Of a stretch of DNA of 45,366 bases, positions 6,406 through 35,627 are shown piece after piece. Position 1 is the first letter of the stretch. Every line of letters begins with the position of its first letter. The DNA is from Candidatus Moraniibacteriota bacterium (GTDB lineage: Bacteria; Patescibacteriota; Minisyncoccia; Moranbacterales; UBA1568): NCBI GenBank assembly GCA_017983435.1, contig JAGOBM010000007.1, positions 1 through 45,366 on the forward strand, in the 5' to 3' direction. Made by a program: the position numbers and the translations under genes. The notes beneath the pieces were generated by a model that saw nothing but the letters and a program-made list of their open reading frames with translations, was not told the DNA's origin and searched no databases.

Positions 6406-7140
6406 ATGGACCAGAGCATAGGTCAGGCAGCCGTCAGTTTTTCATGGAAGGAGCCGATCGGGCTCGCGTTTGAGAAGACGAAAGAGAAGATCTGGTTCCT
6501 CTTGGGAGTACTTTCCGTCGCCTATCTGGTGCAGCTGGCGCCGGAGATGCTCGCGGCCGTGCTGTCGATTCCCGAAGAGGGGGGCGTCCGTTTCTTCTTC
6601 AATCTTATCAGCTGGATCTTGTCGGTCTATATGTCGGCCGGTATCCTGCGCATCATGCTGCGGGTAGTGCGTGGCGAAGAGACTCGCGTGGAGGATCTGT
6701 TCGCTGATCCGAAACTGATCCCTCATTATCTGGTCGCTTCGCTGCTCTACGGATTGATCATCTTTGCAGGTTTCCTGCTCCTGATCGTCCCGGGTGTCGT
6801 CTGGTCGCTCAAATACGGGATGTTTGGATACTTCCTCGTCGAGCGCAAGGCAGGTATCATGGACTCATTCCGGCAGAGCGCCGCGCTGACCGATGGGGCA
6901 AAGTGGCAGCTGTTTGCTCTCTCGCTTGTCACGATGGGTATCATTCTGCTCGGTCTCCTCGCGTTTTTCGTCGGTATTTTCTTCGCATTGCCGCTCGTGT
7001 CGCTCGCCAATGCGTATGCTTATATTCTGCTTGCCCGGCCGGCTGTCATGGAAGCGGTTCCTGAGTCGGCTCCGGTGACTCCGGAGACAGTGGTTCCGGC
7101 TCTAGAGATCGCAACTCCGGAACAGCCGAAAGAGAATTGA
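6406..7140 (+). CDS. Polytopic membrane protein (DUF975-like), Pro/Glu-rich C-terminal tail
   Basis: Several hydrophobic helices. I prefer the ATG at 6406 over the TTG at 6370. The family call is tentative. Confidence 0.6.
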   Translation: MDQSIGQAAVSFSWKEPIGLAFEKTKEKIWFLLGVLSVAYLVQLAPEMLAAVLSIPEEGGVRFFFNLISWILSVYMSAGILRIMLRVVRGEETRVEDLFADPKLIPHYLVASLLYGLIIFAGFLLLIVPGVVWSLKYGMFGYFLVERKAGIMDSFRQSAALTDGAKWQLFALSLVTMGIILLGLLAFFVGIFFALPLVSLANAYAYILLARPAVMEAVPESAPVTPETVVPALEIATPEQPKEN

Positions 7141-12245: not shown

Positions 12246-13847
12246 CTAGTGCTTTTTGCGTTTCTTTTTCGGCTCTTGCGGTGGGAGGACTTGGGTGTCT
12301 ATCTCTTCGGGAGCCGTGCCAGTCTCTCCGAGAAAGGCGCTTTCTTCGAGATCGATACCGAGCGTGAGGATGAAATCCGAGCTCTGGGATGATGACTCCG
12401 GCAGCGTACCCGTCTCGAGCCCGATGTCGAAGCGGGAGAGGAGTGCGTTCTGACTGTAGAGCTTCGTGCCATCGGTCGTATCTCTCATGGTACTGCGTTC
12501 GGGAGCGTTTTCCAAACGACTGGTTTCGACGGTGGTTCGAGAAAAGCCGAGTTCATCCTTGAGAAAGCGCTGAAGCGAGAGAACGAGGACCGATTGTGAC
12601 GGGGTGGCGATAATGCGGATAGAAGGGGATTCGCTCTCGATCTGCTCGCGCTCTTGCTTCAGGCTGTCGAGTTCGAAGAGATGGTCCGCCGTCTGCGTGA
12701 TTTCTTTCCAGTTGCCGGTCCGAGGTACGAGGATGAAAGCATTGCCGTTCGGAGTCGGTATGTGTGAGACCCGGAGCAGACTTTCCGGTTTCCAGGCATC
12801 GATGACGACGGTCGTGATGTTTTTCGTGTCGAGGGTCCGGATGAGCGCGAGAAAGCTTTCCATCTCTTCGAGCGTCAGATCGGTCTTCACGCTTTCCCCG
12901 AGAGCATCCAGGAGGCGCGAGAGCGTGAGGATATTGAGCAGAGTGCCTGTGGAAAACACCTTGTCTCGTATAGCCTGCATGACTTGCTGCTGGCGTTTGG
13001 CGCGGCCGAAATCTCCTTCCGGATCAGCGTGCCGCTCGCGGACGTATTTGAGTGCCGTGGCCCCATCGAGCCGTTGCCATCCTTTATGGATTTCAAAAGT
13101 CTCGTAGCTGTAGTTTTTCCCCGGATAGCGCGCATCATAGAGATCGCGAGGCACATCGACTGAGACGCCACCGAGCGCATCGACGGCTTTTTCGAATCCG
13201 TCGAAATCGACGATCACCGAGTAGTGGATCGGGACTCCAGCGATAGTCTCGATCGTTTCGTGGATGAGATCGACACCTGCCTGCATGTCGAGGCCGATCT
13301 GATAGATAGCATTGATTTTCGTGTAGGTATCGCCTTGTCCGATCGGAGCATAGAGATCGCGAGGGAAGGAGAGGAGCGCGACGCGACGGGTGTGCGTATC
13401 GATGCTCGCGAGCATAATGGTATCGGTGAGATTTTTCCCGGGATAGTGCTCGCCGGCCCTGCCGAGAAGGAGGATGTTGATGCGGCCATCCGTCTCCTTG
13501 AGCGGTGCACGGTCGGAGAAAAGAGTGCCCGCAGCGCCTTTGAGCTCTGCGAAGAGCGAGATGCTTTGCTCGTTTTCGAAAGAGAGTGTCTGCCCGACGT
13601 GAGCGGCTTTGGTGATGAGAAAGAAGAGTGCTCCTGCTAGAGCGAACACGATCAGGAATACGAATGATACTGCCAGGGTTTTCCAGTGGATAGGCTGGTG
13701 AGAGTGTTTCTGTCGCGTTTGTGCTGTTTCTGACATGACGAAAGACGACTCGGCGTGCCCGAGATTGAGCGTCTGTCGGGCATGCGGGGCTGATACGCGG
13801 GGCACAGGGCTGCTCGGCGCTCTTTTTGTCGGTCTCAGACTGTCCAT
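12246..13847 (-). CDS. LCP (LytR-CpsA-Psr) family protein
   Basis: TM anchor followed by INILLLGRAG...NLTDTIMLASID...ALLSFPRDLY...KINAIY motifs. An alternative start is at 13736. Confidence 0.85.
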   Translation of the reverse strand: MDSLRPTKRAPSSPVPRVSAPHARQTLNLGHAESSFVMSETAQTRQKHSHQPIHWKTLAVSFVFLIVFALAGALFFLITKAAHVGQTLSFENEQSISLFAELKGAAGTLFSDRAPLKETDGRINILLLGRAGEHYPGKNLTDTIMLASIDTHTRRVALLSFPRDLYAPIGQGDTYTKINAIYQIGLDMQAGVDLIHETIETIAGVPIHYSVIVDFDGFEKAVDALGGVSVDVPRDLYDARYPGKNYSYETFEIHKGWQRLDGATALKYVRERHADPEGDFGRAKRQQQVMQAIRDKVFSTGTLLNILTLSRLLDALGESVKTDLTLEEMESFLALIRTLDTKNITTVVIDAWKPESLLRVSHIPTPNGNAFILVPRTGNWKEITQTADHLFELDSLKQEREQIESESPSIRIIATPSQSVLVLSLQRFLKDELGFSRTTVETSRLENAPERSTMRDTTDGTKLYSQNALLSRFDIGLETGTLPESSSQSSDFILTLGIDLEESAFLGETGTAPEEIDTQVLPPQEPKKKRKKH

Positions 13848-14626: not shown

Positions 14627-16092
14627 TGAATATTTTTCAGGATGCTAATTGGGATAATCGCGTGCATATGATAAAGAAATCGACGGCGCCGAAGGCTCCG
14701 AAAAAAGCGATCGAAAAGAAGAAGCCAGCTGCCGTGAAGAAGGCGGCTACGGCCAAAGTATCGAAAAAAACCGATAAGCCGTCGGTGAGCGAGGAAGAGC
14801 TCCTGCTGCAAGCGTTGCGCGGTATGCGGGATATCCTGCCGGACGAGCAGCCTTACTGGGAGCGGGTACGTCGGGTCTTGACGCATGCGCAGCAGGAATA
14901 CGGATTTCAACGCATCGATACGCCGCTCGTCGAATACGCTCATCTCTTCACGCGGTCAGTCGGACAGGGGACAGATATCATCGACAAGGAGATGTATGTC
15001 TTCAATACGCGCGGCGGCGACAAGGTAGCGCTCCGGCCAGAATTCACGGCTGGCGTGGCGCGCGCGTTCATCCAGCATGGTATGGCGGTACTGCCTAAGC
15101 CGGTGAAGCTCTTCACGATTGGGACTGTCTATCGCTATGATCGCCCGCAGGAGGGCCGGTACCGCGAGTTCTGGCAGGCGAATTTCGATATGTTCGGCGA
15201 AGAAGATCCGATTCTTGATGCCCAGGCGCTGCAGCTGGCGTTCCGGGTTGTGCGCGAGCTCGGACTCAAGAATATCGAATTCCAGGTCAATAGTATCGGT
15301 ACGCCTGAATCGCGGAAGGATTACGAGAAGGCACTCTTGCGCTATCTCGAATCGCAGAAGCATCGTCTCTGTCAGAACTGCCGGGATCGCTTCAATACCA
15401 ATCCGATGCGTATCCTCGATTGCAAGGAAGACAAATGCATCCAGCTGACCGCGCATGCGCCACAGTCGCTCGATTATCTCGACCAGGAATCCCGCGATCA
15501 CTTCAAGCGCCTGCTTGAGTACCTCGATGAGCTCGAGCTGCCGTATACGATCAACACCCGCCTTGTGCGCGGCCTCGATTATTACACGCGGACCGTCTTC
15601 GAGATCTGGTCGAGTGACAAAGAAGGGAAGAAATACTCGCTTGGCGGCGGCGGACGCTATGATCGCCTGGTACAGATGCTTGGCGGCGAGCCGACCGCAG
15701 CTATCGGTTTCGGTCTCGGCCTCGATCGTATCGTGCTCGAGATGAAGCGTACGCAGGTGAAGCCCTATGAAATGCCGAAGCCGAAAGTCTTCCTGGCGCA
15801 GCTCGGCGATCTCGCCAAGAAGAAGAGTTTGCGGATCTTCGCAGATCTCGAAAAGAACGGCGTGCTCTTGGCTGAGAGCTTCGGTCGTGGGAGTCTCAAA
15901 TCTCAGATGCGCGTGGCCAATCGGATCGGCGCCGAAGTGACCGTCATCATCGGTCAGAAAGAAGCACTGGATGATACGGCCATCGTGAAAGACATGATCT
16001 CAGGGACGCAGGAAACCGTGACGCAGGAGCGTCTAGTGGATGCCGTGAAGAAGATATTGAAAGCGAATCAGACTTTGGTGCAGAATGCCTGA
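14626..16092 (+). CDS. hisS: Histidine--tRNA ligase with a Lys/Ala/Pro-rich N-terminal extension
   Basis: LRGMRDILPDE and class II motifs, plus a C-terminal anticodon-binding domain. The ATG overlaps the lepB stop (TGATG). An alternative start is at 14668. Confidence 0.92.
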   Translation: MNIFQDANWDNRVHMIKKSTAPKAPKKAIEKKKPAAVKKAATAKVSKKTDKPSVSEEELLLQALRGMRDILPDEQPYWERVRRVLTHAQQEYGFQRIDTPLVEYAHLFTRSVGQGTDIIDKEMYVFNTRGGDKVALRPEFTAGVARAFIQHGMAVLPKPVKLFTIGTVYRYDRPQEGRYREFWQANFDMFGEEDPILDAQALQLAFRVVRELGLKNIEFQVNSIGTPESRKDYEKALLRYLESQKHRLCQNCRDRFNTNPMRILDCKEDKCIQLTAHAPQSLDYLDQESRDHFKRLLEYLDELELPYTINTRLVRGLDYYTRTVFEIWSSDKEGKKYSLGGGGRYDRLVQMLGGEPTAAIGFGLGLDRIVLEMKRTQVKPYEMPKPKVFLAQLGDLAKKKSLRIFADLEKNGVLLAESFGRGSLKSQMRVANRIGAEVTVIIGQKEALDDTAIVKDMISGTQETVTQERLVDAVKKILKANQTLVQNA

Positions 16093-21097: not shown

Positions 21098-21129
21098 GAG
21101 TGTCCCTTGATCGGGACGCTCTTTTTTTT
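21098..21129 (+). terminator. Intrinsic terminator after ftsZ
   Basis: GAGTGTCCC/GGGACGCTC 9-bp stem (one G-U pair) followed by T8. Confidence 0.75.
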
Positions 21130-21286
21130 GTGGTGTTTTAGGCGATTTTCTACTGTTGTTTCGAACATATTTCTGATATACTGAAAGGTAGAGGATTCTC
21201 GGAATTTTTTGTTATTTTCTTGCAGGATTCTTCCTAAAAAAAATGCGGCCGCAACGTGCCGGAGATTACGGTGGAAGAGCTGGATA

Positions 21287-24200
21287 ATGGACGTCAAACA
21301 CAAAACAAAAGCAACGGGAGCGTCTTGGCTATGGAGGCGGTTTTTTCGTTCTCTTTGGATGAGATATGCCCACGCGCGCACGCTCTTCCTGAAGAGCCGT
21401 GCAGTAGTGCGGAAGCCGAGGCAGCGCATGATCGTCGAGGCGGATAGTCTATCGGAATTTCTCTCAGAATATTCGGTGGCGGATAGGGAGAGCTATGGTG
21501 CGGCGTATCGTCGGCGCTATTATGTGGCGCTTGCCTGTCGGTACGCCGGCCGGAAACTGGCGTGGATCGGGAAGATAGTTAGACAAGCGGGGTGGCGCGG
21601 TGCTGTGGCGACAATCGGTATCGTGCTTGCAATCTATATCGGAGGTATCGGAGTCTCGAGCGCCCCTTTTGCTCGTTCGATCAGTACGGAGATGGAGTGG
21701 AGCGGAGGAGCATCCGACAATCTCTCTCTCGAGAGTGCAACAGATGCCATACAACTGGCATCACAGGGGAGTTGGTCAGCTCGCACGTGGGCGGTGCCGC
21801 CGGATACGGTGAGTGCTGGATCGAGTTCGGTATTCGTAGGGGATGACCTTTACGTCATGCGCGGTCTGTCCGACAAGGCATTCTGGAAGTATGATTCGGT
21901 TCTCAACGAATGGATCGAGCTCGAGGATCTGCCGTTTCCGGCCTACTATGGCGCGAGTATGACGAGCAACGGGAACAGCTTAATTTACGTGATTTTCGGC
22001 GGATATTCCAAGAAATTCTATCAGTACGATACAGCGACCGGAGATTGGACGGCGTTACCGGATCTGCTCGACACGACATGGACCGGCGCGAGCATCAGTT
22101 TTGATGGCACGAACCCGTATGTCTTGCGCGGCAATGCCAGTACAGATTTTTGGCGGTACAATGTGGCACTCGGTGAATGGCAGAGTCTTGCGCCGATTTC
22201 GGCCACGGCTTCGACCGGCGCGAGTCTGGTATACGGACAGGATGGGAATTTCTATACGCCGCGCGGGGCCAACACTCTGACGTTTTATCGATACAATGTC
22301 GCGACCAATACCTGGAGTGCGCGGACAAATATCACGACCGGATATACCTTTGGTGGTAATCAGCAGGGCGCGTACGCTAATGGCTTTATCTATTACCCGC
22401 GGTCTGCTTCCACGAACAGTCTTTTGCGATATGATATTGCTGGCAATAGCTGGGCAGTGCTGGCGGCTATGCCGGCGACCGCCAATGACACGCCGATCGC
22501 GTACAACGCCAATGACAATCAGCTGTACATGCTGCGCTCCGCTGGTACGTACGACCTGTGGAAATTCGACCCGACGCTCGGTGCGACTGGTGACTGGGTC
22601 GGCCCGCAGCAGGTGATGAACAATGCCTTCGGTATGGGGACCGGAAGCGACTTGCTTTGGAATGGTGTCACTGGGGCAGGCTCGTATGTCTATGCGGTCC
22701 GCGGAGGGACAGCCGGGTTCTATCGCTACGCGACCGCGACCAATACCTGGACGGCGCTGACCAATCTGCCGCTGGTGCCGACCGCTGACACCACTGGTAC
22801 GCTGATCGGAGACTATATCTATTATCCGCTCGGCAACAACACGACGACTTTCTATCGCTATACCATATCGACCAATACCTGGGCGGCGATGACGGTGCTG
22901 CCCGGCACGGCTTCGAATGGCGGCAGTGCAGCTTACAATGCTTCAGATGGGAAAGTGTATGTCTTGCGAGGGAACGGCACGGCGAATTTCTACAGCAGTC
23001 CCAATACGACGACGCTTGCTTGGACGACTCTCTCATCCACGGTGATCAGTGGCGTGACTTACAACAGCAATATCGGAGCTCGTCTGGTTTCGGATGGGAC
23101 GGATTTGTACGCGACAGTCGGCGATGGAGAGACGGCTTTCTTGAAGTACAGCACGGCAAGCAGCACTTGGTCCCGGGTGGCTTCGACACCGTTTGCCCAG
23201 TACTACGGTACGAGTCTCACGCATACGGGTGGTAAGATCTACGCGCTGGCCGGCTACTACAAGGATGAGGCTTGGGAATATACCATCGCGACCGATACGT
23301 GGCGCCAGCTGCCTTCCAATCAGAAATACCTCTATGGCCGCGGACCGTACAACGGTGCTGCGCTGGAGTATGCGGGCGGGAGCTCTTTCTACGCGCTGAC
23401 CGGGCTCGGGACGACGGATATGTGGAGCTTCACGGCGGGCACGGGGAGTTTCGTCAGCTCGGGCACCTATGTGAGCGAGCCACTCGATCTGGCGCAGGCA
23501 TCAGATTGGGTCTCGTTGGTCGCCAATGATACCGTTCCGGCCAATACAAGCGTCGTTTATGAGACTCGTTCCAGCACTGATGCTGCTTCCTGGTCGGCTT
23601 GGGAGACGGTGAGCGGGACGACGATCGCATCGCCGGCACAGCGCTATCTGCAGGTCCGGATCACGCTGGCGACCTCAGACGGGGTTTCGACACCAACCGT
23701 GACGGACTACACAATTACTTACAATAATTCCGATACACCGCCGACCAACCCGACAGCGGTCAATGCCTATTCGCAGAATGTCGGAGGAGTGACGCTCACA
23801 TCCGGCCAATCATATCCGCATGAGCATCCGTATTTCTCGTTTTCCGGCGCCGCGAGTCCGGAAGCGGGTATCGAGGGATACTATGTGTATTTCGGGACGA
23901 ATGCGAGTGCTGATCCAGCGGCCAGTGGCTCGTTTCAGACGGCTGCGACCTATGAGGTCAATCGGGCTCTGGACACCGGTACGTACTATCTGCGTATCAA
24001 GACGAAGGATAACAACGGCAATGTCAGTGCCGCTACCTACGCTGCCTTTACCTATGTGTACAATGGTGTCTCTCCGGCGCTGGTTGAAACGAAGACGAGT
24101 CAGGCGGAGTTCGCCGCCGGCACGCTGAGTGACCTCTCGTCTTCCGCCGTGCCGGATTCCTTGCGTCTCGCGCCGGTCAGCGGGACTGGATTCTGGAATC

Positions 24201-27200
24201 AGAGCCGATTGACCAATATGCTGGCGGCGGTCTCTTCTGGTGGCGACTCGGTCCGTGTGAATTACAGCGGCAATGAATATATCTACGCGTTGCGTGGTGC
24301 CGGCACGACCGGGTTTTATCGCTACGAGCTGGCGACGGATACCTGGACGGCTTTGGCAGTGACGCTCGGAACGGTGGGCTCGGGCGGATCGATTATTGCT
24401 GGGCCCAACGGAACGCTCTATGCGACGCAGGGCAACAACCTGCCGACTTTCTGGAAATATGATATCGCGACCAATATCTGGACAGCGGTCTCGAGCGCGC
24501 CGAAGAATTTCAATATCGGAGGATCGCTTTCCTATGACGGATCGCGCTATATCTACGGGCTTCCAGGGAGCGATGACGCCTTCTATCAGTACGATACGAC
24601 CAATAATCTTTGGACCGCCAAGGCCAACGCACAGTTCGGTAATCCGAACACGGTGGACGGACAGACGGTGAATTACGGATCCGACAGTGCCTATGACGGG
24701 CGCAACAATATCTATGTGCTGCAGGGGAATTATTACCCGTATCTCGCTCGGTATTCGATCGCGACCGATGCTGAGTATGGCGAGACGGCCAATACCTGGA
24801 CCGTGCTTTCTTCGGCACCGACCGGCATCTATACCGGCGGGAGTATCGCCTATGACGCGACGACCGAGAGTCTCTATGTGACGCGCGGCAACTGGAAGAA
24901 CAACTACTATCGGTACGTCATCGGCACGGATACGTGGTCTCAATTGCCCGATACGCCAGCCGGTTTTGATCAGGGTGCGACGCAGACGGTCTACGACGGA
25001 TATATCTATGCTCTGCGCGGAGCCAATACGGCAAATTTCTACCGGTACAATATCAGCGAGAGCTCGTGGGAGATTCCGGCCAAGGGACTGTTCGGACCGT
25101 CTATCCCGGGAGGGACTTCATATTTCCCCTTCTACTACGGCACCGCGACGACGAGCGATGGTGATGGGAATATCTACCTGATGCGCGGATATTATGACAA
25201 TGTGTTTGTGAAGTACAACGTCGCTACCGGTACGACGACTGAGATGGCTCGGCTGCCGGTCGGAGCCTATGACGGAGCCACGCTCAGCTATGCGGTCGAT
25301 CGCGATGAGATCTACTATTCTCCGGGGACGATCCGTACGACGCGGAGCGGTGCTGGGAATTATTTCTACAAATACGATGTCGCGACCAATACCTGGACCG
25401 AAATCACGACCGATAGGCCGCCGCTTCAGGTGGGGGCTGGATCGAGTATGACCTATGATGGCTCCCGCTATCTTTATCTCACCCGTGGCGCTGGAACGAC
25501 GACCTGGTGGCGTTATGATCTCGATGGCACCAACGGATCCCGCTGGTCGGCCCTGACAGTCAATGCATCGCTTGCGACGACAACCGGCGGGAGTATCGTC
25601 GCTTCGACGGGCTTCGTCTATGCGGTGCGCGGAGGGAACAACGCAATCTATCGCTACGATACAACCGGCGGCACCTGGTCGACTCTGCCGGTGATGCCAG
25701 CGACGATCACGACCGGTGGTAGCATGGTCGATGGTCAGGACGGATATCTCTATGTTGTGCGGGGCGGCAATACGTCGAGCAAGTATCGGTACCGCATCGC
25801 TGACGGTTTGTCGGGTACCTGGGAGAATGTGACGAATATTCCGGCTCAGGTGAATATCGGCGGTTTCATGCAGCAGGAAAAGGAGCGGAACTGGGTGATT
25901 GCCGGCAATGGTACCAACTCCTATCCGGACGGTCTGTACAGCTACGTGGTCAGCTCGGCTGCCAACGGAACCGGATTCAAGAAAGTCGGTACCTATACAT
26001 CCGAAGCGCTGGATCTCATCTCGGTCTATCGGTGGGGCAGTCTATCAGTCAACTTCACCCAGCCGGACCATACTTTTGTCTCGTTTGAGACGAGGGCTTC
26101 ATCTGATGGAGTGGATTGGTCGGCATGGGTCGCGGTTTCCAACGAGCAGATCTTCGGGACAGAACATGTCTACAAGATCAACTCATCGCCAGCGGGATAT
26201 ATGCAGGTGCGGGCGACGCTCACTTCATCGGATCAGATCTTCTCGCCGGCCATCGAAGACTACACGGTTAGCTATTATCAGGATATCGCAGCTCCGACCA
26301 ATCCGAGTGCGATCGGCGCCTACACCTCATCGGCGAAGACAACCTCGCTCACGACCGATACCTGGTACAATCATACGGGACCGTATTTCGAATGGCCGGC
26401 TGCCGAGACGGTCGGAGGGGCTTCGGATGGAACCGGCGGATCGGGTGTGGCGGGGTATTACGTGTATTTTGGGACGGATGTGAACGCGGATCCGGTCGCA
26501 TTTCAATCGGGTCATACGTATCAAGCAGGCAGTCTCTCGGCCGGACAGACATACTATCTCAAGATCTCGACCGAAGATCAGGCTGGTATGATATCGGCCG
26601 GCGCGTATGCGGCGTTTACCTACAAGTTCGACAATATCGCTCCGACCAATCCTTCGACGATCGGAGTGACACCGACGGGATATACCGCCATCGACAACTA
26701 CGCCTTCGTCTGGTCGCCCGATGCAGCTGATGCTTTTTCGGGTATCTCCAAGCTGCAGTACCGGACCGATGGTGATGTGCCGGATACCTGGGTCGATATT
26801 ACGAATGTGAGCCAGGTGTCGCTCTCGATTCCGAATGTCGATCATATCGTCGGAGCGTACCAGTCGGGGAAAAACAAATTCTATCTGCGCGTCGTGGACG
26901 GAGCTGGCAATGCTTCCGGAGCGATGATGCAGGAGTACTACTACAGTGCCAGCGCGCCGACACCGCCGCAGAATCTCGCGGTCACGCCGCTTACCTCGAC
27001 GGTCAACTCCTTTGCCTTCTCCTGGGATACTCCGGCTTCATTCGCCGGAGACGAAGCGGGTATCGTCTATCACTATTCGATCAATGTGCTGCCGACTGCC
27101 AATAATTCTGTGGCGACATCGGTGAAGGCGGCCGGACCGAGCGCTTTTGCGACGCAGAAGGGTGAAAACCTCTTCTTCGTGGTCGCTGAGGACGAAGCGG

Positions 27201-28783
27201 GGAATATCGAGTACGGCAATTACGCGGTGGCATCATTTACGGCTGACACGAGCAATCCGCCGATTCCGGGCAGTGTCCAGATCTTTGATACCTCGGACCG
27301 GGAGAATTCCAAGTACGGTATCGCGGTGAAGTGGGCTCGACCGGACGGTATCGACCAGGCGAACTTCGACGGTTTCGTCATCTACCGCTCGGAGGACAAC
27401 GTGACGTTTACCGAAATCGCCAAGACAACCGGTAGCGCCTATGTGGACTCTGGCGAGATCCTCCTGCCATCGGGCGACACGACGCTTGAGAGTAAGCTGT
27501 ACTATTACTACGTGAAATCGAAGGACAAGACGAGCAATTACTCGGCCGCTTCCTCGACCGTCTCTATCGTTCCGACCGGAAAATATACGACGGCTCCGAA
27601 GCTGGTCGGTACGCCGAGCTTCACGACGCAGTCGTATCAGGCGACGTTTCAGTGGGCGACGGATCGTGTGGCGAGCTCATTCATCGAGTACGGGAAATCC
27701 ATCTCGCTCGGCGAGACGACCGGCCAGGTCGATTCGGTGACCTCGCACGAGGTGCTGACCAAAGGATTGGCCGCCGGCACGAAGTATTTCTATCGGGTGA
27801 AATATATCGATCCGGACGGCAATATCGGGACATCGGAAGTAGATACGTTCACGACTCTGCCGCCGCCGGTGATTTCTGAGGTGACCGTGACCGATATCCA
27901 GCTTCATACCGCCTATGTGAACTGGGAGACCAACGTGAGCGCGACCTGTACCCTGAAATATGGCTCGTACACGATCGAGGAAGAGACGGGTGGATCAGGA
28001 CACGTGCAGCGTATCGATCAGCTGGAGCCAGCGTCGGATTATCGGGTGCAGATCGAATGTGTCGACGGCGATCTAAATGAGTTCTCATCGGATGAATATT
28101 CGTTCAGCACGCCGGAAGAGCCGGTTGTCTCGGAAGTGACTATCGAGAACAAGGAAAATGTCGATCTTCCGACTATCGCAATCGCTTATCAGACCAATGT
28201 CGCGACCTCGACTCTGATATACTACAAGTCAGCGAGCGGTACCAATCACACGTACCTGACGGAGGAGCGGGTAACCGAGCATCATGCCGAGATATCTGAT
28301 CTCGATCCGGCGGTGGAATACGCGATCACGGTAACGGGCATGGATCAGTATAATATCCAGGCGACGCCGTTTGAGCAGCGGATTACGACCCGTACCGATT
28401 CGCGTCCGCCGAAGATTCTAGCCAACAAGGCGATGGGCCGGGTATCGGGCCGAGGGACCAATGCGCAGGCCAATGTCTATATCAAGATCGAGACCGATGA
28501 GCCGTCGCGCATCCATGTCGCCTATGCCAAGGGTATCGTGACGCGTTCGTTTGAGCAGTCGACGAGCGACGATTCGCTGAATACCTATCATCTGATTACG
28601 ATTCCCGCGGAAGCCGGTGATGTCTATAGCTATCAGGTGGAGGCGTATGATGAAGCCAACAACAAGACCGTGACGGATGCGGCGACGGTGCCGGTCGAGC
28701 AGTCCAAGGCCAATGCGACCGAAGTGATTACGCGGACTTTCCTCAACAATTTTGGATGGATCGCAAGTCTGGGAGGCAATTAG
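21287..28783 (+). CDS. Giant membrane-anchored surface protein: 24 Kelch-like beta-propeller blades, 2 beta-sandwich modules and about 9 FN3-like domains
   Basis: The frame is open over 21209-28783 (2524 codons). The first in-frame ATG is at 21287, with other candidates at 21359 and 21428. The single TM helix GAVATIGIVLAIYIGGIGV lies at nt 21599-21658. The Y-x-x-R/G-G...F/W-x-Y...W-x-x-L repeat recurs every 44-58 aa. Confidence 0.85.
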   Translation: MDVKHKTKATGASWLWRRFFRSLWMRYAHARTLFLKSRAVVRKPRQRMIVEADSLSEFLSEYSVADRESYGAAYRRRYYVALACRYAGRKLAWIGKIVRQAGWRGAVATIGIVLAIYIGGIGVSSAPFARSISTEMEWSGGASDNLSLESATDAIQLASQGSWSARTWAVPPDTVSAGSSSVFVGDDLYVMRGLSDKAFWKYDSVLNEWIELEDLPFPAYYGASMTSNGNSLIYVIFGGYSKKFYQYDTATGDWTALPDLLDTTWTGASISFDGTNPYVLRGNASTDFWRYNVALGEWQSLAPISATASTGASLVYGQDGNFYTPRGANTLTFYRYNVATNTWSARTNITTGYTFGGNQQGAYANGFIYYPRSASTNSLLRYDIAGNSWAVLAAMPATANDTPIAYNANDNQLYMLRSAGTYDLWKFDPTLGATGDWVGPQQVMNNAFGMGTGSDLLWNGVTGAGSYVYAVRGGTAGFYRYATATNTWTALTNLPLVPTADTTGTLIGDYIYYPLGNNTTTFYRYTISTNTWAAMTVLPGTASNGGSAAYNASDGKVYVLRGNGTANFYSSPNTTTLAWTTLSSTVISGVTYNSNIGARLVSDGTDLYATVGDGETAFLKYSTASSTWSRVASTPFAQYYGTSLTHTGGKIYALAGYYKDEAWEYTIATDTWRQLPSNQKYLYGRGPYNGAALEYAGGSSFYALTGLGTTDMWSFTAGTGSFVSSGTYVSEPLDLAQASDWVSLVANDTVPANTSVVYETRSSTDAASWSAWETVSGTTIASPAQRYLQVRITLATSDGVSTPTVTDYTITYNNSDTPPTNPTAVNAYSQNVGGVTLTSGQSYPHEHPYFSFSGAASPEAGIEGYYVYFGTNASADPAASGSFQTAATYEVNRALDTGTYYLRIKTKDNNGNVSAATYAAFTYVYNGVSPALVETKTSQAEFAAGTLSDLSSSAVPDSLRLAPVSGTGFWNQSRLTNMLAAVSSGGDSVRVNYSGNEYIYALRGAGTTGFYRYELATDTWTALAVTLGTVGSGGSIIAGPNGTLYATQGNNLPTFWKYDIATNIWTAVSSAPKNFNIGGSLSYDGSRYIYGLPGSDDAFYQYDTTNNLWTAKANAQFGNPNTVDGQTVNYGSDSAYDGRNNIYVLQGNYYPYLARYSIATDAEYGETANTWTVLSSAPTGIYTGGSIAYDATTESLYVTRGNWKNNYYRYVIGTDTWSQLPDTPAGFDQGATQTVYDGYIYALRGANTANFYRYNISESSWEIPAKGLFGPSIPGGTSYFPFYYGTATTSDGDGNIYLMRGYYDNVFVKYNVATGTTTEMARLPVGAYDGATLSYAVDRDEIYYSPGTIRTTRSGAGNYFYKYDVATNTWTEITTDRPPLQVGAGSSMTYDGSRYLYLTRGAGTTTWWRYDLDGTNGSRWSALTVNASLATTTGGSIVASTGFVYAVRGGNNAIYRYDTTGGTWSTLPVMPATITTGGSMVDGQDGYLYVVRGGNTSSKYRYRIADGLSGTWENVTNIPAQVNIGGFMQQEKERNWVIAGNGTNSYPDGLYSYVVSSAANGTGFKKVGTYTSEALDLISVYRWGSLSVNFTQPDHTFVSFETRASSDGVDWSAWVAVSNEQIFGTEHVYKINSSPAGYMQVRATLTSSDQIFSPAIEDYTVSYYQDIAAPTNPSAIGAYTSSAKTTSLTTDTWYNHTGPYFEWPAAETVGGASDGTGGSGVAGYYVYFGTDVNADPVAFQSGHTYQAGSLSAGQTYYLKISTEDQAGMISAGAYAAFTYKFDNIAPTNPSTIGVTPTGYTAIDNYAFVWSPDAADAFSGISKLQYRTDGDVPDTWVDITNVSQVSLSIPNVDHIVGAYQSGKNKFYLRVVDGAGNASGAMMQEYYYSASAPTPPQNLAVTPLTSTVNSFAFSWDTPASFAGDEAGIVYHYSINVLPTANNSVATSVKAAGPSAFATQKGENLFFVVAEDEAGNIEYGNYAVASFTADTSNPPIPGSVQIFDTSDRENSKYGIAVKWARPDGIDQANFDGFVIYRSEDNVTFTEIAKTTGSAYVDSGEILLPSGDTTLESKLYYYYVKSKDKTSNYSAASSTVSIVPTGKYTTAPKLVGTPSFTTQSYQATFQWATDRVASSFIEYGKSISLGETTGQVDSVTSHEVLTKGLAAGTKYFYRVKYIDPDGNIGTSEVDTFTTLPPPVISEVTVTDIQLHTAYVNWETNVSATCTLKYGSYTIEEETGGSGHVQRIDQLEPASDYRVQIECVDGDLNEFSSDEYSFSTPEEPVVSEVTIENKENVDLPTIAIAYQTNVATSTLIYYKSASGTNHTYLTEERVTEHHAEISDLDPAVEYAITVTGMDQYNIQATPFEQRITTRTDSRPPKILANKAMGRVSGRGTNAQANVYIKIETDEPSRIHVAYAKGIVTRSFEQSTSDDSLNTYHLITIPAEAGDVYSYQVEAYDEANNKTVTDAATVPVEQSKANATEVITRTFLNNFGWIASLGGN

Positions 28784-28806
28784 ACATACGCAATGAGAGA
28801 TTCTAT

Positions 28807-29568
28807 ATGACCGAAGAGAACGAAGTCGTTATCAGAGTCGTCGGACTCAAGAAGAGCTTTCATGTCGGTACCCAGAATATCCCGGTGCTGCACGGCATCG
28901 ACCTCGAGGTCCACAAGGGCGAGTTTGTCCTGCTCGTCGGACCGTCCGGCTGTGGCAAATCGACGCTCTTGCACACGATATACGGTCTGGAAAACCCGAC
29001 TGAGGGGACGGTATATATTGAGGAAGACGACATCTGGGAGAAGACCAAAGATTGGCGGGCGAATTTCAGGAACCGGCATATCGGCTTCATTCCGCAGCAG
29101 CCGTTTTGGATCAAATCGCTTACGGTGATTGAGAATATCGCCATACCCGGAGTCATCGGCGGAAAGACTTTTGGCGAGAGCATCCCTCTGGCGGCCAAGC
29201 TGATCGAGCTGGTCGGTATGGGCGAGTGGGCCAATCATCGTCCGTACGACCTGTCCGGAGGCCAGCAGCAGCGTATCGCGCTCGCTCGCTCGCTCCTGCT
29301 CAATCCGAAGTTCATCATCGCCGACGAGCCGACCGGCAATCTCGATATCAAGGCGGGCGAGACGCTCATGACGCTGCTCCGTAATATCTCCCAGCAGTTC
29401 GGTATCACGATCATGATGGTGACGCACAATATCGATCAGTACAAATTCGGCTCGCGTATCGTCAATATGGTGGATGGGAGAGTGACCTCGGATACTATCA
29501 ATCAGCATTCCATCGAGATGATGGAGCAGGATGTCACGGATCTCAAGCAAAAAACGGAAACCGTATGA
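28807..29568 (+). CDS. ABC transporter ATP-binding protein (MacB/LolD-type)
   Basis: Walker A GPSGCGKST, signature LSGGQQQRIALARS, Walker B IIADEPTGNLD. It starts 23 nt after the giant gene's stop. Confidence 0.9.
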   Translation: MTEENEVVIRVVGLKKSFHVGTQNIPVLHGIDLEVHKGEFVLLVGPSGCGKSTLLHTIYGLENPTEGTVYIEEDDIWEKTKDWRANFRNRHIGFIPQQPFWIKSLTVIENIAIPGVIGGKTFGESIPLAAKLIELVGMGEWANHRPYDLSGGQQQRIALARSLLLNPKFIIADEPTGNLDIKAGETLMTLLRNISQQFGITIMMVTHNIDQYKFGSRIVNMVDGRVTSDTINQHSIEMMEQDVTDLKQKTETV

Positions 29569-30878
29569 GTTTTCTCAAGAAAAATCAGAAACCGAAGACA
29601 GCGGCGGAAGAGCGGCATGCGGCCGATTTCCGGTTTTCCCATATGCGGCTTTCCACGATACTCTTCATCGGGTATCGAAATATGTTCTCGAATCGGATGC
29701 GTTCGGTACTGACGATCGGCGGTGTCGCCATCGGTATCGGCATCATCACGCTTCTGATTTCGCTCGGTTTCGGCGTGCAGGGAATGGTGATTCGCGAAGT
29801 GACCAAGAACAATCCGAGCGATATCATCGATATCAGCAACAAAAGCCTCGAGAGCTTCGCCTTGCTCGATACGCAGACGATCGAGCGTATCCGGAAGATC
29901 GAAGGCATCGAACAGATCGAAATCCGGGCGAGCATCGGCGGTAAGTTTTTCAACGGCGATGCCCAGACGGATGTCGTCATCAACGCGATTAGTCGCCACT
30001 ATCTCGATCTGGCGCGCTCGGACCTCGATGCTGGTATCCGGGAGAAGATATTCCTGGAGCCGCGTTCCATCCTGATCACCCCCAAGCTGGCGGTATTGCT
30101 CGGTTTTGATAACCCGGATGACAGTATCGGCAAGACGATAGAGTATACCGGAGTCGTCACTGGGGATATGCTGGCAGATGTGGAGGAGTCTCCTGCGCGG
30201 TCAGAGGAAGAAATCGCTGCCGAGAATAAACTGACCATAGTCGGTGTTGTCAGGGATCAAGCGAAGGATGAAGCGGTATATGCGTTCATGCCGATCGACG
30301 AAGTCCGGAAACGCTACGGCAAGGTTGCGGGGCAGTTCGCCAAGGCGCGTGTCAAAGACGAGCTCTCGATCGAGCCGGCGCGCCTGCAGATTGAGCAGAC
30401 GGCTTTCGTGACGGAGAGCGTCATCGATACGATTGCTGATATCAACTCGTTCTTCTCAATCGTCCGGGCTATCCTGGTGGTTTTCGGTGTCATCATTATG
30501 TCGATTTCGGCGATGGGCATGCTCAATACCTTGAGTATCTCTCTTCTGCAGCGGACCAAGGAAGTCGGTATCCTCAAGGCGCTCGGCACCAAACGGACCG
30601 ATATCTTCAAGATGTTCATCTTTGAGGCGTTCCTGATCAGCTTTTTCGGCGGCGTGCTCGGGCTTCTGTTCGGCTACGGATCAGCCAAGGGAATCAACTA
30701 CGGCATCAATCTCATGGCATCGAAATACGGCGTGGCCGCCTCGAGTTTCGTGGAGATCCCCTCGATGTTCGTGGTACTGATCGCGGTGTTCATCTTTTTC
30801 CTTGGTCTGCTCACCGGTATTTTTCCGGCAGTCCGGGCCTCCAAGATCCATGCACTCGAAGCGCTGCGGTACGAATAA
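29565..30878 (+). CDS. ABC transporter permease, FtsX/MacB-type, with a large extracytoplasmic domain
   Basis: 437 aa. TM1 is followed by an external domain of about 230 aa, then three C-terminal TM helices in the FtsX-type arrangement. ATGA overlap with the ATPase gene. Confidence 0.88.
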   Translation: MSFLKKNQKPKTAAEERHAADFRFSHMRLSTILFIGYRNMFSNRMRSVLTIGGVAIGIGIITLLISLGFGVQGMVIREVTKNNPSDIIDISNKSLESFALLDTQTIERIRKIEGIEQIEIRASIGGKFFNGDAQTDVVINAISRHYLDLARSDLDAGIREKIFLEPRSILITPKLAVLLGFDNPDDSIGKTIEYTGVVTGDMLADVEESPARSEEEIAAENKLTIVGVVRDQAKDEAVYAFMPIDEVRKRYGKVAGQFAKARVKDELSIEPARLQIEQTAFVTESVIDTIADINSFFSIVRAILVVFGVIIMSISAMGMLNTLSISLLQRTKEVGILKALGTKRTDIFKMFIFEAFLISFFGGVLGLLFGYGSAKGINYGINLMASKYGVAASSFVEIPSMFVVLIAVFIFFLGLLTGIFPAVRASKIHALEALRYE

Positions 30879-30938: not shown

Positions 30939-30966
30939 TTGACACTCTATTTTGGCAGTCTATAAT
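30939..30966 (+). promoter_or_regulatory. Consensus sigma70-like promoter of groEL (TTGACA-16-TATAAT)
   Basis: TTGACA at 30939-30944 and TATAAT at 30961-30966. Confidence 0.6.
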
Positions 30967-30978
30967 AGAGAGTGCTAA
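30952..30978 (+). promoter_or_regulatory. CIRCE-like operator (putative HrcA site) overlapping the -10 box
   Basis: TTGGCAGTC-N9-GAGTGCTAA against the consensus TTAGCACTC-N9-GAGTGCTAA. The left half matches 7/9 and the right half 9/9. Confidence 0.55.
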
Positions 30979-31050
30979 TTAAATTGTTAAATAGTTACAA
31001 TTGTTTTGCATTGCTGTTTTTTGGAACGATAAGGCAATAAAACAATTTAG

Positions 31051-32715
<1,665 letters not shown>

Positions 32716-32886: not shown

Positions 32887-33342
32887 ATGTTTTGTCCCTA
32901 TTGCCGTCATACGGATACGAAAGTCGTGGATTCCCGCCTGACGCAGGAGGGTCGTTCGGTGCGCCGCCGCCGGGAATGTGAGAAGTGTCAGGCGCGCTTC
33001 AGTACCTATGAGGAGCCGGATTTTTATCGGGTGACGGTCATCAAGAAGGATGGACATCGCGAGCTTTTCGACCGGGCGAAGCTGCGTGTCGGTCTGGAGC
33101 GCGCGTTTGAGAAGCGGCCGCAAGCGGATGAGAAGGTGGCGCATGTGCTCAGGGACATCGAGCGATTGATCCGTGAGCGCGGCCTTAAGGATATCGCGAG
33201 CCGGGAAATCGGCCGCCTAGTCATGGAGCAGCTCCGCGGTGTCGATGAGGTGGCGTTTATCCGTTTTGTGAGCGTCTACAAGTCTTTCGGGAGCGCGCAG
33301 AGTTTCCGTAAGGCGATTGAGAGTCTCGATGACGAGGCATGA
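32887..33342 (+). CDS. nrdR: Transcriptional repressor NrdR
   Basis: Zinc ribbon MFCPYCRH...CEKC followed by an ATP-cone. Confidence 0.92.
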   Translation: MFCPYCRHTDTKVVDSRLTQEGRSVRRRRECEKCQARFSTYEEPDFYRVTVIKKDGHRELFDRAKLRVGLERAFEKRPQADEKVAHVLRDIERLIRERGLKDIASREIGRLVMEQLRGVDEVAFIRFVSVYKSFGSAQSFRKAIESLDDEA

Positions 33343-34781
33343 AGCGCTGGCTACTTCCGATACTATCAGGCTCTTTCGTCGCCGGCGTCGCTCTTGGTTC
33401 CCTGATGACATTTCAGAGCGCGCTGGTCTTCGGATGTCTCGCGGGGGTTGTGATTGTGGCGGCTGTGGCTGCTTTTCAGAGCCGTCTGGTCGTACTCTTC
33501 CTGGTCTCCGGTGGATTGTTCATATCCGGCGTGCTCCTGGTATCAGATACCACGGAGCAGTATCAGGCTTTGTCCGGCATATCCGGAGTGAGCGGTAGCG
33601 GAACGATACGGGGTGAGATGGATCGAGGAGTCTACGATGCGCGAGTCGTAGTGGCACTCGATGATTGCGGGAGCGAGGCGTGTCCTCGTGAGTCGGTGCA
33701 GCTGCGAGTCGATCGTTTCAGCGAGTGGTCCGATGGTATGCGGGTACGTATCGGCCCGTGCGATTTCAAGCGGCCCAGACGTTTCGATCCGGAGTTCGAT
33801 TATCCGATGTATCTCGCCAAGGAGGGTATCGGATTCGTTGCGGAACGGTGTCCGATGGAGCGGATAGCGGCTGAGGATAGCTATTTCCGGACCTGGCTCT
33901 CTCGGGCGCGCGTATCGGTGGCGGAGCGTATCGCCTATCGATTGCCGGAACCGGAAGCGGGTTTGGCGAGAGGATTACTGCTCGGTGGCAGTGATGAGCT
34001 GCCTGATTCCGTGGCGGATGCTTTTCGGACGGTCGGACTGTCGCATATCGTCGCAGTATCCGGCTACAATATTTCCGTGCTGGCCGGAGGGCTTTTCCTG
34101 CTAGGCATCCTGCTCGGCTGGTATCGTAAGCAAGCCGTCTGGCTGACGCTTCTTGGCATCGTGCTGTTCGTCTGTCTCGTCGGCGCCCCAGCTTCGGCGG
34201 TACGGGCGGCGCTGATGGCGGGTATCGCTTTCTTTGCGCTCCTCGCGGCGCGTCCGGCCGATGGTCTCTCGCTTCTGTGCGTGGCTGGCGCGCTGATGCT
34301 CGCCGTCAACCCGCTCCTCCTCCGTTATGATATCGGATTCCAGCTTTCATTTGCAGCGACGTTTGCGATCCTGATCTCAGCTCCTCGTCGAGCTCAGATT
34401 CACTATCGGTCGTGGATTGTCGGGAGTGTCATGGAGATGGTCTTCATTACGTCGACGGTTCTCATTTTCGTCATACCGCTCTCGCTCTTCCATTTTGGCA
34501 CGCTCTCGCCGTACGCGCTCCTCAGCAATGTTTTGGTGTTACCCCTGGTCCCGGTCGCTTTTCTCCTGTCGTTCGCCATCGTACTCCTCGGTTGGGTGCC
34601 GGGTCTGGGTGCTGGGATTGGTTGGCTGGGCTACGGAGCGCTGCATGGAGCGCTCTTTCTTGGGGACCGATTGTCGGCTTTGCCCGGAGCGGGCATGACG
34701 TTTTCCGGGGTCGCTGCTTGGATGGTAGGATGCTGGTATCTCGGTTGGGTGCTTTTCTTCGTCTGGCGGAATAATAGGTAG
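33339..34781 (+). CDS. comEC: ComEC/Rec2-family DNA internalisation channel (membrane part only)
   Basis: A DUF4131-like N-terminus is followed by the Competence domain (GLSHIVAVSGYNISVL). The protein is polytopic. ATGA overlap with nrdR. Confidence 0.85.
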   Translation: MKRWLLPILSGSFVAGVALGSLMTFQSALVFGCLAGVVIVAAVAAFQSRLVVLFLVSGGLFISGVLLVSDTTEQYQALSGISGVSGSGTIRGEMDRGVYDARVVVALDDCGSEACPRESVQLRVDRFSEWSDGMRVRIGPCDFKRPRRFDPEFDYPMYLAKEGIGFVAERCPMERIAAEDSYFRTWLSRARVSVAERIAYRLPEPEAGLARGLLLGGSDELPDSVADAFRTVGLSHIVAVSGYNISVLAGGLFLLGILLGWYRKQAVWLTLLGIVLFVCLVGAPASAVRAALMAGIAFFALLAARPADGLSLLCVAGALMLAVNPLLLRYDIGFQLSFAATFAILISAPRRAQIHYRSWIVGSVMEMVFITSTVLIFVIPLSLFHFGTLSPYALLSNVLVLPLVPVAFLLSFAIVLLGWVPGLGAGIGWLGYGALHGALFLGDRLSALPGAGMTFSGVAAWMVGCWYLGWVLFFVWRNNR

Positions 34782-34784
34782 CTT

Positions 34785-35627
34785 ATGCGTATCCGTACTC
34801 TCGTGGTCGTCGCACTCCTCGCGCTCTCGATAGTGGCGGGAATATTTCTCTGGCTTTCGATTCGTGAGTTCGCACCGCTGCGAGTCGTTTTTCTCGATGT
34901 CGGGCAGGGCGATGCTATCCTGATTGCCGAAGGCGATACACAGGTATTGATTGATGGCGGTGCTGAGAGTCGGCAGCTGCTCGGCCAGCTTGGTCGCTTC
35001 GTGCCGTTTTGGGATCATCGGATTGAAACGGTCATCGCGACGCATCCGGATGCGGACCATATCGGCGGGCTGGCAGCAGTGATCCGGCGCTATCGGGTCG
35101 GGCATTTTCTCTCCAATGGTGCCGAGGGGCAGAGCGGTGCTGCCGCTGATCTCAAGCGGTCGCTTGAGCAGTCATCCGAGACGGATCGGGCGGTCTTGGG
35201 TACCGGGTCGAGGCTGGTATTTCCCGGAGGAGCCGAGCTCTCTGTGCTTTTTCCAGTGAGCGGAGCAGCTGCCAATTTGGAGGAGACGAATGAGGGCAGT
35301 ATCGTGGCACGCTTAGAATACGGACAAGCGAGCTTCTTGTTGACCGGAGATCTACCGCATGAAGAGGCCGTACTTCCGGATATCGAGCCGGCACAGGTGC
35401 TTAAAGTCGCGCATCATGGGTCGAAATATTCGACGAGCGATGCGTGGCTCGCGCGCGTGCAGCCCGAGGTCGCTGTTGTCTCAGTCGGCAAGAACCGCTA
35501 TGGTCATCCGGCCGATGAAGTGCTCCATCGACTCCGGGCCGTTGGAACGGAAATACTTCGGACGGATGAAGTCGGGAATATTGTGTTCGTCTGTCAGCAG
35601 AATGCCTGTGTCCGGGAGCGGAGATGA
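34785..35627 (+). CDS. MBL-fold metallo-hydrolase (ComEC C-terminal-type domain as a separate, TM-anchored protein)
   Basis: VFLDVGQGDAILI, THPDADHIGG and VAHHGSKYS motifs. It starts 3 nt after the comEC stop. Confidence 0.85.
   Translation: MRIRTLVVVALLALSIVAGIFLWLSIREFAPLRVVFLDVGQGDAILIAEGDTQVLIDGGAESRQLLGQLGRFVPFWDHRIETVIATHPDADHIGGLAAVIRRYRVGHFLSNGAEGQSGAAADLKRSLEQSSETDRAVLGTGSRLVFPGGAELSVLFPVSGAAANLEETNEGSIVARLEYGQASFLLTGDLPHEEAVLPDIEPAQVLKVAHHGSKYSTSDAWLARVQPEVAVVSVGKNRYGHPADEVLHRLRAVGTEILRTDEVGNIVFVCQQNACVRERR

Follow-up and report, generated by a model that had tools for sequence, protein, structure and literature searches.

The genes of the locus and the anchored giant protein

The window analyzed here comprises 45,366 nucleotides (nt) of a Candidatus Moraniibacteriota genome (contig JAGOBM010000007.1, assembly GCA_017983435.1), and the subject of this study is a gene within it that encodes a giant protein of 2,498 amino acids (aa; 21287..28783; positions of features refer to the window and, unless indicated otherwise, to the + strand). 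The gene order around it is ftsA, ftsZ, giant gene, ABC (ATP-binding cassette) ATPase, permease, and groEL, with the ATPase being of the LolD/MacB/DevA/FtsE type (28756..29568) and the permease, whose gene overlaps that of the ATPase by 4 nt, being of the MacB type with MacB_PCD and FtsX domains (29565..30878). The three genes from the giant to the permease are delimited as a unit, since a terminator-like hairpin with a T-run after ftsZ (21098..21131; 9-bp stem including 6 GC pairs, T8) marks the upstream edge of the transcription unit, and a perfect match to a TTGACA-16-TATAAT promoter before groEL (30939..30966) marks its downstream edge. An earlier note, made from the sequence alone, had assigned the DNA to the candidate phyla radiation (CPR, Patescibacteria), in agreement with the closest relatives of the giant, which are encoded in metagenome-assembled genomes (MAGs) of Moranbacteria.

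The open reading frame (ORF) of the giant gene extends over 21209..28783, and translation from the ATG at 21287 yields the 2,498 aa; the public gene call for the same sequence starts 47 codons later, at 21428 (2,451 aa), and an exact-sequence look-up with the window's product gave no hit. As the alignments with relatives of 50-75% identity begin at query residues 3-19, the start at 21287 is likelier than this alternative. The protein begins with a basic region that is predicted to be cytoplasmic (aa 1-104; 21287..21598), is poorly conserved, and is found in the Moranbacteria/Parcubacteria clade only, with 24 K/R vs. 7 D/E among the first 105 aa. It is followed by a single transmembrane (TM) helix (aa 105-124; 21599..21658), the one hydrophobic segment detected in the giant by a hydropathy scan. 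This arrangement, which the earlier note had read in the same way, fits an N-in signal anchor according to the positive-inside rule. Directly behind the TM helix, the sequence continues with SSA-P, and the Pro at position +1 after SSA speaks against cleavage of the anchor by signal peptidase. The hydrophobic segment is likewise single in 108 of 119 full-length homologues and N-terminal in every case, starting around aa 96 in the Moranbacteria-type clade.

Neither an LPXTG motif nor a catalytic domain nor a second TM segment was found in the 2,498-aa giant (translation, Pfam, NCBIfam, and hydropathy), and its C-terminus (...VITRTFLNNFGWIASLGGN) does not show the succession of LPXTG, hydrophobic stretch, and basic tail that is typical of a sortase-anchored adhesin. 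RTX or haemolysin-type repeats were not matched by Pfam either. An enzymatic core was rejected after both the complete protein and nine sub-segments had been scanned against Pfam and NCBIfam: Pfam, which the earlier note had suggested as a check for a non-propeller fold or an enzymatic core, assigned Kelch repeats and no enzyme domain. The absence of catalytic motifs and sorting signals noted previously was thereby borne out, and the giant appears to be a non-enzymatic extracytoplasmic protein anchored at its N-terminus.

Since its protein sequence is internally repetitive, the ORF might be suspected to be an assembly chimera or a spurious product of repeats. Beyond this repetition at the protein level, nothing speaks for such an origin, whereas the direct DNA repeats within the gene do not exceed 72 nt, share 60-78% identity, and are, therefore, too short and too diverged to make repeat-induced misassembly plausible. 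Moreover, more than 120 independent full-length homologues stem from many samples and assemblers, and all genomes compared contain the two modules described below as colinear orthologues. We thus consider an artifact so improbable as to be negligible.

Two duplicated Kelch modules and a train of beta-sandwich domains

Behind the anchor, a lead segment (aa 125-170; 21659..21796) precedes the 12 Kelch blades of module 1 (aa 171-720; 21797..23446), a first beta-sandwich domain (aa 721-812; 23447..23722), and a first FN3-like domain (aa 813-930; 23723..24076), the latter being recognized in a structure model as well as by profile search. The same succession returns with a linker that forms the lead segment of module 2 (aa 931-985; 24077..24241), 12 further blades (aa 986-1566; 24242..25984), a second beta-sandwich (aa 1567-1665; 25985..26281), and a second FN3-like domain (aa 1666-1780; 26282..26626), where the assignment of the blades relies on Pfam, blade motifs, and homology to module 1, and that of the two tail domains on the module alignment and profiles. 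Both tails were found where the earlier note had placed them. It had also counted 12 + 12 Kelch-like blades in two duplicated super-modules, and all 12 motifs that it quoted for module 1 are present at aa 188-701 with a spacing of 43-55 aa. The 12 blades of module 2 lie at aa 999-1535 with a spacing within 43-56 aa; 11 of them were found by a regular expression, and the third (YIYGLPG, ~aa 1088) was read from the translation. Pfam matched Kelch_6 with 94.6 bits (E 2e-27, cut-off 25.3) and Kelch_1 with 78.8 bits (cut-off 20.1).

The two modules (aa 169-930 and aa 1024-1786) align colinearly with 31% identity over 839 columns (E 6e-74), and the ~45-aa lead segments ahead of both propeller pairs are homologous to each other as well, so that the repeated unit comprises lead segment, 12 blades, beta-sandwich, and FN3-like domain. 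In an alignment of 59 genomes, the score within the same module exceeded the score against the other module in 6,844 of 6,844 comparisons. The duplication is, therefore, older than all 59 genomes, and the modules have diverged without concerted evolution.

An AlphaFold2 (AF2) model of module 1 (aa 128-965, based on an alignment of 22 sequences) reached a mean pLDDT of 87.4 and a pTM of 0.70 and consists of 12 four-stranded blades and, behind them, two beta-sandwich domains. When it was compared to the Protein Data Bank (PDB) by Foldseek, the best local matches were the six-bladed Kelch domain of NS1-BP (5yy8 and 6n3h; target-normalised TM-score 0.82-0.83, rmsd 2.7-2.8 Å) and, next, Keap1 and KLHL12, and the top whole-chain matches were double-propeller proteins, namely the periplasmic sensor domain of BT4663, GH74 enzymes, and LRP6. 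Based on these Kelch-domain and double-propeller matches, the 12 blades of a module most likely form two six-bladed rings. The giant would then most likely contain four six-bladed Kelch propellers, as had been proposed from the blade count, with the pair in module 2 being assigned by homology to module 1. Blade motif and fold are shared with six-bladed Kelch proteins more generally (NS1-BP, Keap1, KLHL12, and NanM/YjhT; TM-score 0.7-0.83), but, unlike NS1-BP, Keap1, or NanM, the giant carries four predicted propellers in one chain and outside the cell. The JGI name 'N-acetylneuraminic acid mutarotase' (NanM/YjhT) was rejected, with TIGR03547 reaching 34.5 bits against a cut-off of 256.35 and PF24996 reaching 43.2 against 45. 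With regard to the overall plan, tandem propellers combined with beta-sandwich/FN3 domains on a single-pass protein are also found in BT4663 (4a2m) and ROS1/Sevenless. However, this likeness is a loose one at the level of the fold (TM-score 0.35-0.39 for BT4663 and 0.19 for ROS1, identity ~9%), the giant has no kinase, and, to our knowledge, neither BT4663 nor ROS1/Sevenless uses Kelch blades.

The two ~95-aa sandwich domains of the giant matched no Pfam family. A profile of sandwich and FN3 domains retrieved 6,838 representatives from 1.84 billion proteins, and both sub-domains recur in other giant proteins, up to 56 times. The sandwich profile matches 15-17 repeats in the proteins P0219 and P0259, which themselves match Reelin_subrepeat-B (E 3e-27 and 2e-24, respectively) and BNR/Asp-box models. 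Together with an Asp-box-like motif (S-x-D-x-x-x-W) that can be read directly from the sandwich of the giant (RSSTDAASWSAW), this transitive evidence suggests that the sandwich is a putative Asp-box-type module. It should be added that P0259 is a flagellin of 2,490 aa whose ends are formed by Flagellin_N and Flagellin_C and whose center holds ~15 copies of the Asp-box sandwich.

These likenesses bring up a different role for the giant, that of a glycan-binding sensor or processing scaffold, whose double propellers would clamp polysaccharide or peptidoglycan and whose adjacent ABC pair would respond to the polymer or act on it. This would be in line with the best whole-module Foldseek matches (BT4663, 4a2m, E 5.5e-15; GH74 enzymes, 5fkt and 6p2l), with the relation of the Asp-box-like sandwich, via intermediates, to regions matching Reelin_subrepeat-B/BNR, with polar and charged loop residues that are invariant across 16 diverse homologues, and with a response-regulator gene upstream of the giant gene in some loci. 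However, the TM-scores to double-propeller proteins amount to only 0.35-0.39 at 8-14% identity, the blades are of the Kelch rather than the BNR type, the giant contains neither a glycoside-hydrolase nor a kinase domain, and the upstream regulators are lineage-specific. While we regard this scaffold as quite unlikely, the resemblance to double-propeller glycan binders and the invariant polar loops suggest, if speculatively, that the propellers have a conserved glycan or envelope ligand.

In the remainder of the ectodomain, seven FN3/Ig-like beta-sandwich domains form a train (aa 1781-2472; 26627..28702), which is followed by an aromatic, conserved helix (aa 2477-2495; 28715..28771; consensus TFxxxFGWxxxLW). 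An AF2 model of the C-terminal 718 aa (pLDDT 83) shows the seven domains and, with low confidence, the terminal helix; its pTM of 0.36 is low, as is expected for domains arranged like beads on a string. F2489 within the helix is invariant, and we know of no sorting signal that the helix resembles. Foldseek matched the train to titin, gp130, contactin, LAR, fibronectin, and the GhpA grappling hook, with E-values of 1e-12 to 1e-22 for the arrays of titin, gp130, LAR, and fibronectin, and one domain exceeded the Pfam cut-off for fn3 (27.9 vs. 25). Of the earlier description of this part, the FN3/Ig units were thus confirmed, and the likeness to N-terminal domains of purple acid phosphatases proved to be real but weak: the last four domains resemble Pur_ac_phosph_N, which was detected in 3 stretches below the threshold (25.2 vs. 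30 bits). A purple acid phosphatase was rejected as a reading of the giant for this reason and because Metallophos was not matched. Finally, the domain order from the N-terminus is TM helix, propellers, FN3 train. As the anchor is N-terminal, the propellers are expected to be membrane-proximal and the FN3 train distal, which is the opposite of the previous picture, in which a long stalk displays the propellers.

Conservation of the giant and its linkage to the ABC genes

A protein search revealed no fewer than 120 full-length homologues (2,277-2,675 aa, 38-78% identity, 92-100% query cover), and a scan with two peptide patterns, to which each species contributed one genome, identified a relative of the giant in 151 genomes. 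According to the record titles, these include Moranbacteria/Parcubacteria, Berkelbacteria, and the Microgenomates lineages Roizman-, Woese-, Shapiro-, and Levybacteria. The full-length homologues at 38-52% identity are all uncharacterised and carry automatic names, and no description of the family or of the gene cassette was found in full-text literature searches. Length and architecture are constant from Parcubacteria to Microgenomates; besides, single-module variants (P0243, 1,614 aa; P0158, 1,822 aa) and longer forms (P0168, 3,315 aa) exist. Cassettes of the CPR type also occur in records labelled 'uncultured Gammaproteobacteria', 'Pseudomonadales', 'Bdellovibrionales', 'Weeksellaceae', and 'Melioribacter roseus' (among others, L039, L043, L047, L048, and L054 = OZ246401.1, 938 kb, 'chromosome 1'). 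The contigs concerned are similar in size to those of CPR bacteria, and the records are probably mislabelled CPR MAGs.

The ectodomain is evenly conserved, with a column identity of 0.38-0.61 to the window sequence. Such evenness along the whole length could be taken as a sign of a structural, S-layer-like envelope scaffold that surrounds the cell as a lattice or spacer layer, the more so as the conserved C-terminal helix could mediate self-association and the cassette takes up ~1% of the genome (~9.6 kb, with a genome size of ~0.9 Mb estimated from contigs of 938-971 kb). However, a membrane anchor together with a dedicated ATPase would be unusual for S-layer proteins, rendering a scaffold of this kind very unlikely.

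The earlier note had proposed a survey of the neighbourhoods of orthologues, and it had missed what this survey revealed, namely that a MacB-type ABC pair always lies immediately downstream of the giant gene, which provides the strongest hint at its function. Among the 67 loci with at least 900 nt of downstream sequence, the ATPase gene directly follows the giant gene in 66; in the 67th, the giant ORF is broken, and the ATPase gene is still in place. The permease gene comes next in all 63 loci with sufficient sequence. The median distance between giant and ATPase ORFs is 2 nt. Within the window, the ATPase gene either shares its first 28 nt with the end of the giant gene (ATG 28756) or follows it after a gap of 23 nt (alternative ATG 28807), and the two genes are likely translationally coupled. 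In two distant homologues (38% and 45% identity), the upstream genes differ from those of the window, and the downstream ATPase and permease genes are the same. The linkage also holds from the opposite side: starting from the permease, 3 of 3 homologues (49-75% identical to the window permease, two of them on newly sampled contigs) are preceded by an ATPase and a Kelch/FN3 giant of 2,524-2,592 aa. Furthermore, giant and permease have diverged to the same extent, with mean identities to the window proteins of 74/73, 53/54, and 38/35% (giant/permease) in three divergence bins and a Spearman rho of 0.88-0.89 (n = 64).

The genes upstream of the giant vary between lineages, and clustering of 1,212 flanking ORFs otherwise yielded only lineage-specific neighbours (rhodanese, prepilin peptidase, amidase, M16 peptidase, and response regulator). 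A link to cell division via ftsA-ftsZ was rejected, as neither FtsA nor FtsZ was detected up to 10 kb from the giant gene in any of 79 related loci and a terminator separates the genes within the window. Locus L080 contains the same housekeeping set (LCP, S26 peptidase, HisRS, YbeY, FtsA, and FtsZ), arranged differently with respect to the cassette. In 9 loci, the giant gene is immediately preceded by a response-regulator gene (e.g., L002, 7380-7763, Response_reg; L002 also encodes a PAS histidine kinase), which hints at lineage-specific regulation.

Several variations of the cassette were observed as well. In a distant clade (L001, 16290-18836, and ~26 Microgenomates-type loci), the partner permease has a length of ~710-850 aa instead of ~435 aa, with ~490 aa inserted between MacB_PCD and the FtsX module, and in L001, a 131-aa FN3-like ORF (15126-15521) is located between the giant and ATPase genes. 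The groEL gene directly follows the permease gene behind its consensus promoter (region 30939-31066, +), and the adjacency of permease and groEL genes recurs in L006, L009, L022, L032, and L081; the gap of 188 nt is too small for groES.

The conservation and the linkage also bear on the role that the earlier note had favored, a passive adhesin or host-contact fibre, for which the ABC pair would merely make, insert, or release the giant or be co-transcribed for unrelated reasons. Arrays of Kelch and FN3/Ig domains typically serve for binding or as spacers, and the matches of the train to titin, gp130, contactin, and GhpA, the recurrence of sandwich and FN3-like units in many other giant surface proteins, and the lack of a catalytic domain would all suit an adhesin, as would the epibiotic lifestyle of the cultivated members of the group to which the bacterium belongs. 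However, an adhesin would not be expected to retain its length, its domain order, and its whole ectodomain across class-level lineages or to evolve no faster than the adjacent permease. Other giant Patescibacteria proteins with a proposed adhesin role are reported to have no full-length homologues, as is the case for those of Patescibacterium danicum (more than 5,000 aa), which have none among 2.1 million Patescibacteria proteins (PMC11809585). In addition, the presumed binding heads of the giant adjoin the membrane instead of sitting at the tip, and the invariant linkage to a MacB-type ABC pair would be left unexplained. An adhesin, thus, fits the conservation pattern poorly and is somewhat disfavored.

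Apart from the cassette, the window encodes a second likely surface protein of 680 aa that combines three Lamin-tail domains with a PKD domain (7046-9088, -). Other genes related to the envelope or to scavenging encode a staphylococcal-nuclease homologue (1891-2442, +), a DUF4012 protein (4640-6115, -), and a LytR-CpsA-Psr protein (12246-13847, -). ComEC is apparently split into an ORF with Competence and DUF4131 domains (33339-34781, +) and a metallo-beta-lactamase ORF 4 nt downstream (34785-35627, +).

A putative giant partner of a type VII ABC system

Pfam assigned MacB_PCD (58.6, cut-off 27) and FtsX (73.6, cut-off 25.5) to the permease and ABC_tran (120 bits) to the ATPase. The nearest solved structures of the permease are Streptococcus pneumoniae Spr0695 (5xu1_M, E 4.6e-24), Bacillus subtilis YtrF (9o9x), MacB, and LolC/E/F, and the best models for the ATPase are LolD, YbbA, DevA, DarD, FtsE, and MacB, all of which remained under their equivalog cut-offs. 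Since the equivalog scores fall short throughout (LolD 198/308, FtsE 165/265, lolCE 61/362, MacB 61-165/966), the pair is best placed, on the basis of these profiles, in the MacB (type VII) superfamily without assignment to a named system. In type VII ABC systems, cytoplasmic ATP hydrolysis moves an extracytoplasmic domain that acts on a partner, resulting in mechanical work and not in transport. Partners include MacA, LolA and lipoproteins, and EnvC/PcsB/CwlO/RipC.

Among characterized systems, Spr0693-0694-0695 and Escherichia coli MacAB share with the cassette a permease composed of MacB_PCD and FtsX, 5xu1 being its best PDB sequence match, and the spr0693-0695 and yknXYZ operons presumably have the same order of anchored extracytoplasmic partner, ATPase, and permease. 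With a MacA/HlyD adaptor, the giant has in common the N-terminal anchor and the gene position upstream of ATPase and permease; its juxtamembrane region is modelled as short strands without a long helical hairpin. In contrast to MacAB-like pumps, nothing here points to drug or peptide efflux. FtsEX, LolCDE, and YtrEF belong to the same superfamily, and the ABC pair matches models of YtrF, LolC/E/F, and FtsX, but ftsA-ftsZ of the window are not conserved neighbours of the giant gene. The pair also differs from type 1 secretion systems, as the adjacent ABC proteins are of the MacB type and not ABC_membrane/C39.

Taken together, we propose, with a probability of roughly one half, that the three genes constitute a conserved cell-envelope cassette of CPR/Patescibacteria in which the giant serves as the extracytoplasmic partner of the MacB-type ABC pair. 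The giant would be anchored by its one N-terminal helix, with super-modules and FN3 train outside the cell, and would take the gene position that a membrane-fusion adaptor holds in Gram-positive MacAB-like operons. Cytoplasmic ATP hydrolysis could be transmitted via the outer domain of the permease so that the propeller/FN3 assembly is held, moved, or switched. The assembly itself might bind a conserved ligand, for which a glycan or envelope polymer, either the cell's own or that of a host, is the most plausible candidate. We infer the partner role from a linkage that is strict from either side, and likely translational coupling, matching divergence rates, and the precedent of type VII systems are consistent with it. 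Moreover, CPR/Patescibacteria genomes are tiny (~0.6-1 Mb), and that order and architecture of the cassette remain constant across class-level lineages in genomes of this size points to a strong conserved function.

It should be noted that several observations weigh against such a partnership. It is genetic linkage from which the partner role is deduced, and any two neighbouring genes that are inherited vertically would be expected to diverge in parallel. The search for permease homologues covered orthologues of at least 45% identity, and the census of giants was bounded by the two peptide patterns used in the species-genome scan. No HlyD, biotin-lipoyl, alpha-hairpin, or beta-barrel match to the giant was obtained from Pfam/NCBIfam, even with E-values of up to 5, and the coiled coil and LytM/CHAP/NlpC-P60 hydrolase of an FtsEX-type partner were not found in Pfam, NCBIfam, or the AF2 models. 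Furthermore, the cytoplasmic tail and the TM helix show the lowest conservation within the giant (column identity 0.12 and 0.16, respectively), which is unexpected if the TM helix represents the main contact to the permease. In the Microgenomates-type clade (~2,370 aa), the hydrophobic segment starts at aa 11-24 and resembles a signal peptide, so that these giants may be cleaved and released.

Thus, the cassette is best described as a MacB-type mechanotransmission system with a putative new giant partner that is neither adaptor nor hydrolase. A bolder version, which we hold to be unlikely, is that of an ancient ATP-powered surface machine common to many Patescibacteria (Parcubacteria, Microgenomates, and Berkelbacteria), in which a type VII ABC system would mechanically drive a four-propeller/FN3 appendage, perhaps tens of nm long if extended (a rough estimate), that grips, pulls, or extracts a polymer of the host or the envelope. 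If true, the cassette would add a new class of partners to the mechanotransmission ABC systems and could be a core component of the episymbiotic lifestyle. It is an old and still open question how CPR bacteria assemble their envelope and make contact with other cells. While most giant CPR surface proteins evolve too fast to be compared across lineages, the cassette provides a conserved target that can be expressed module by module.

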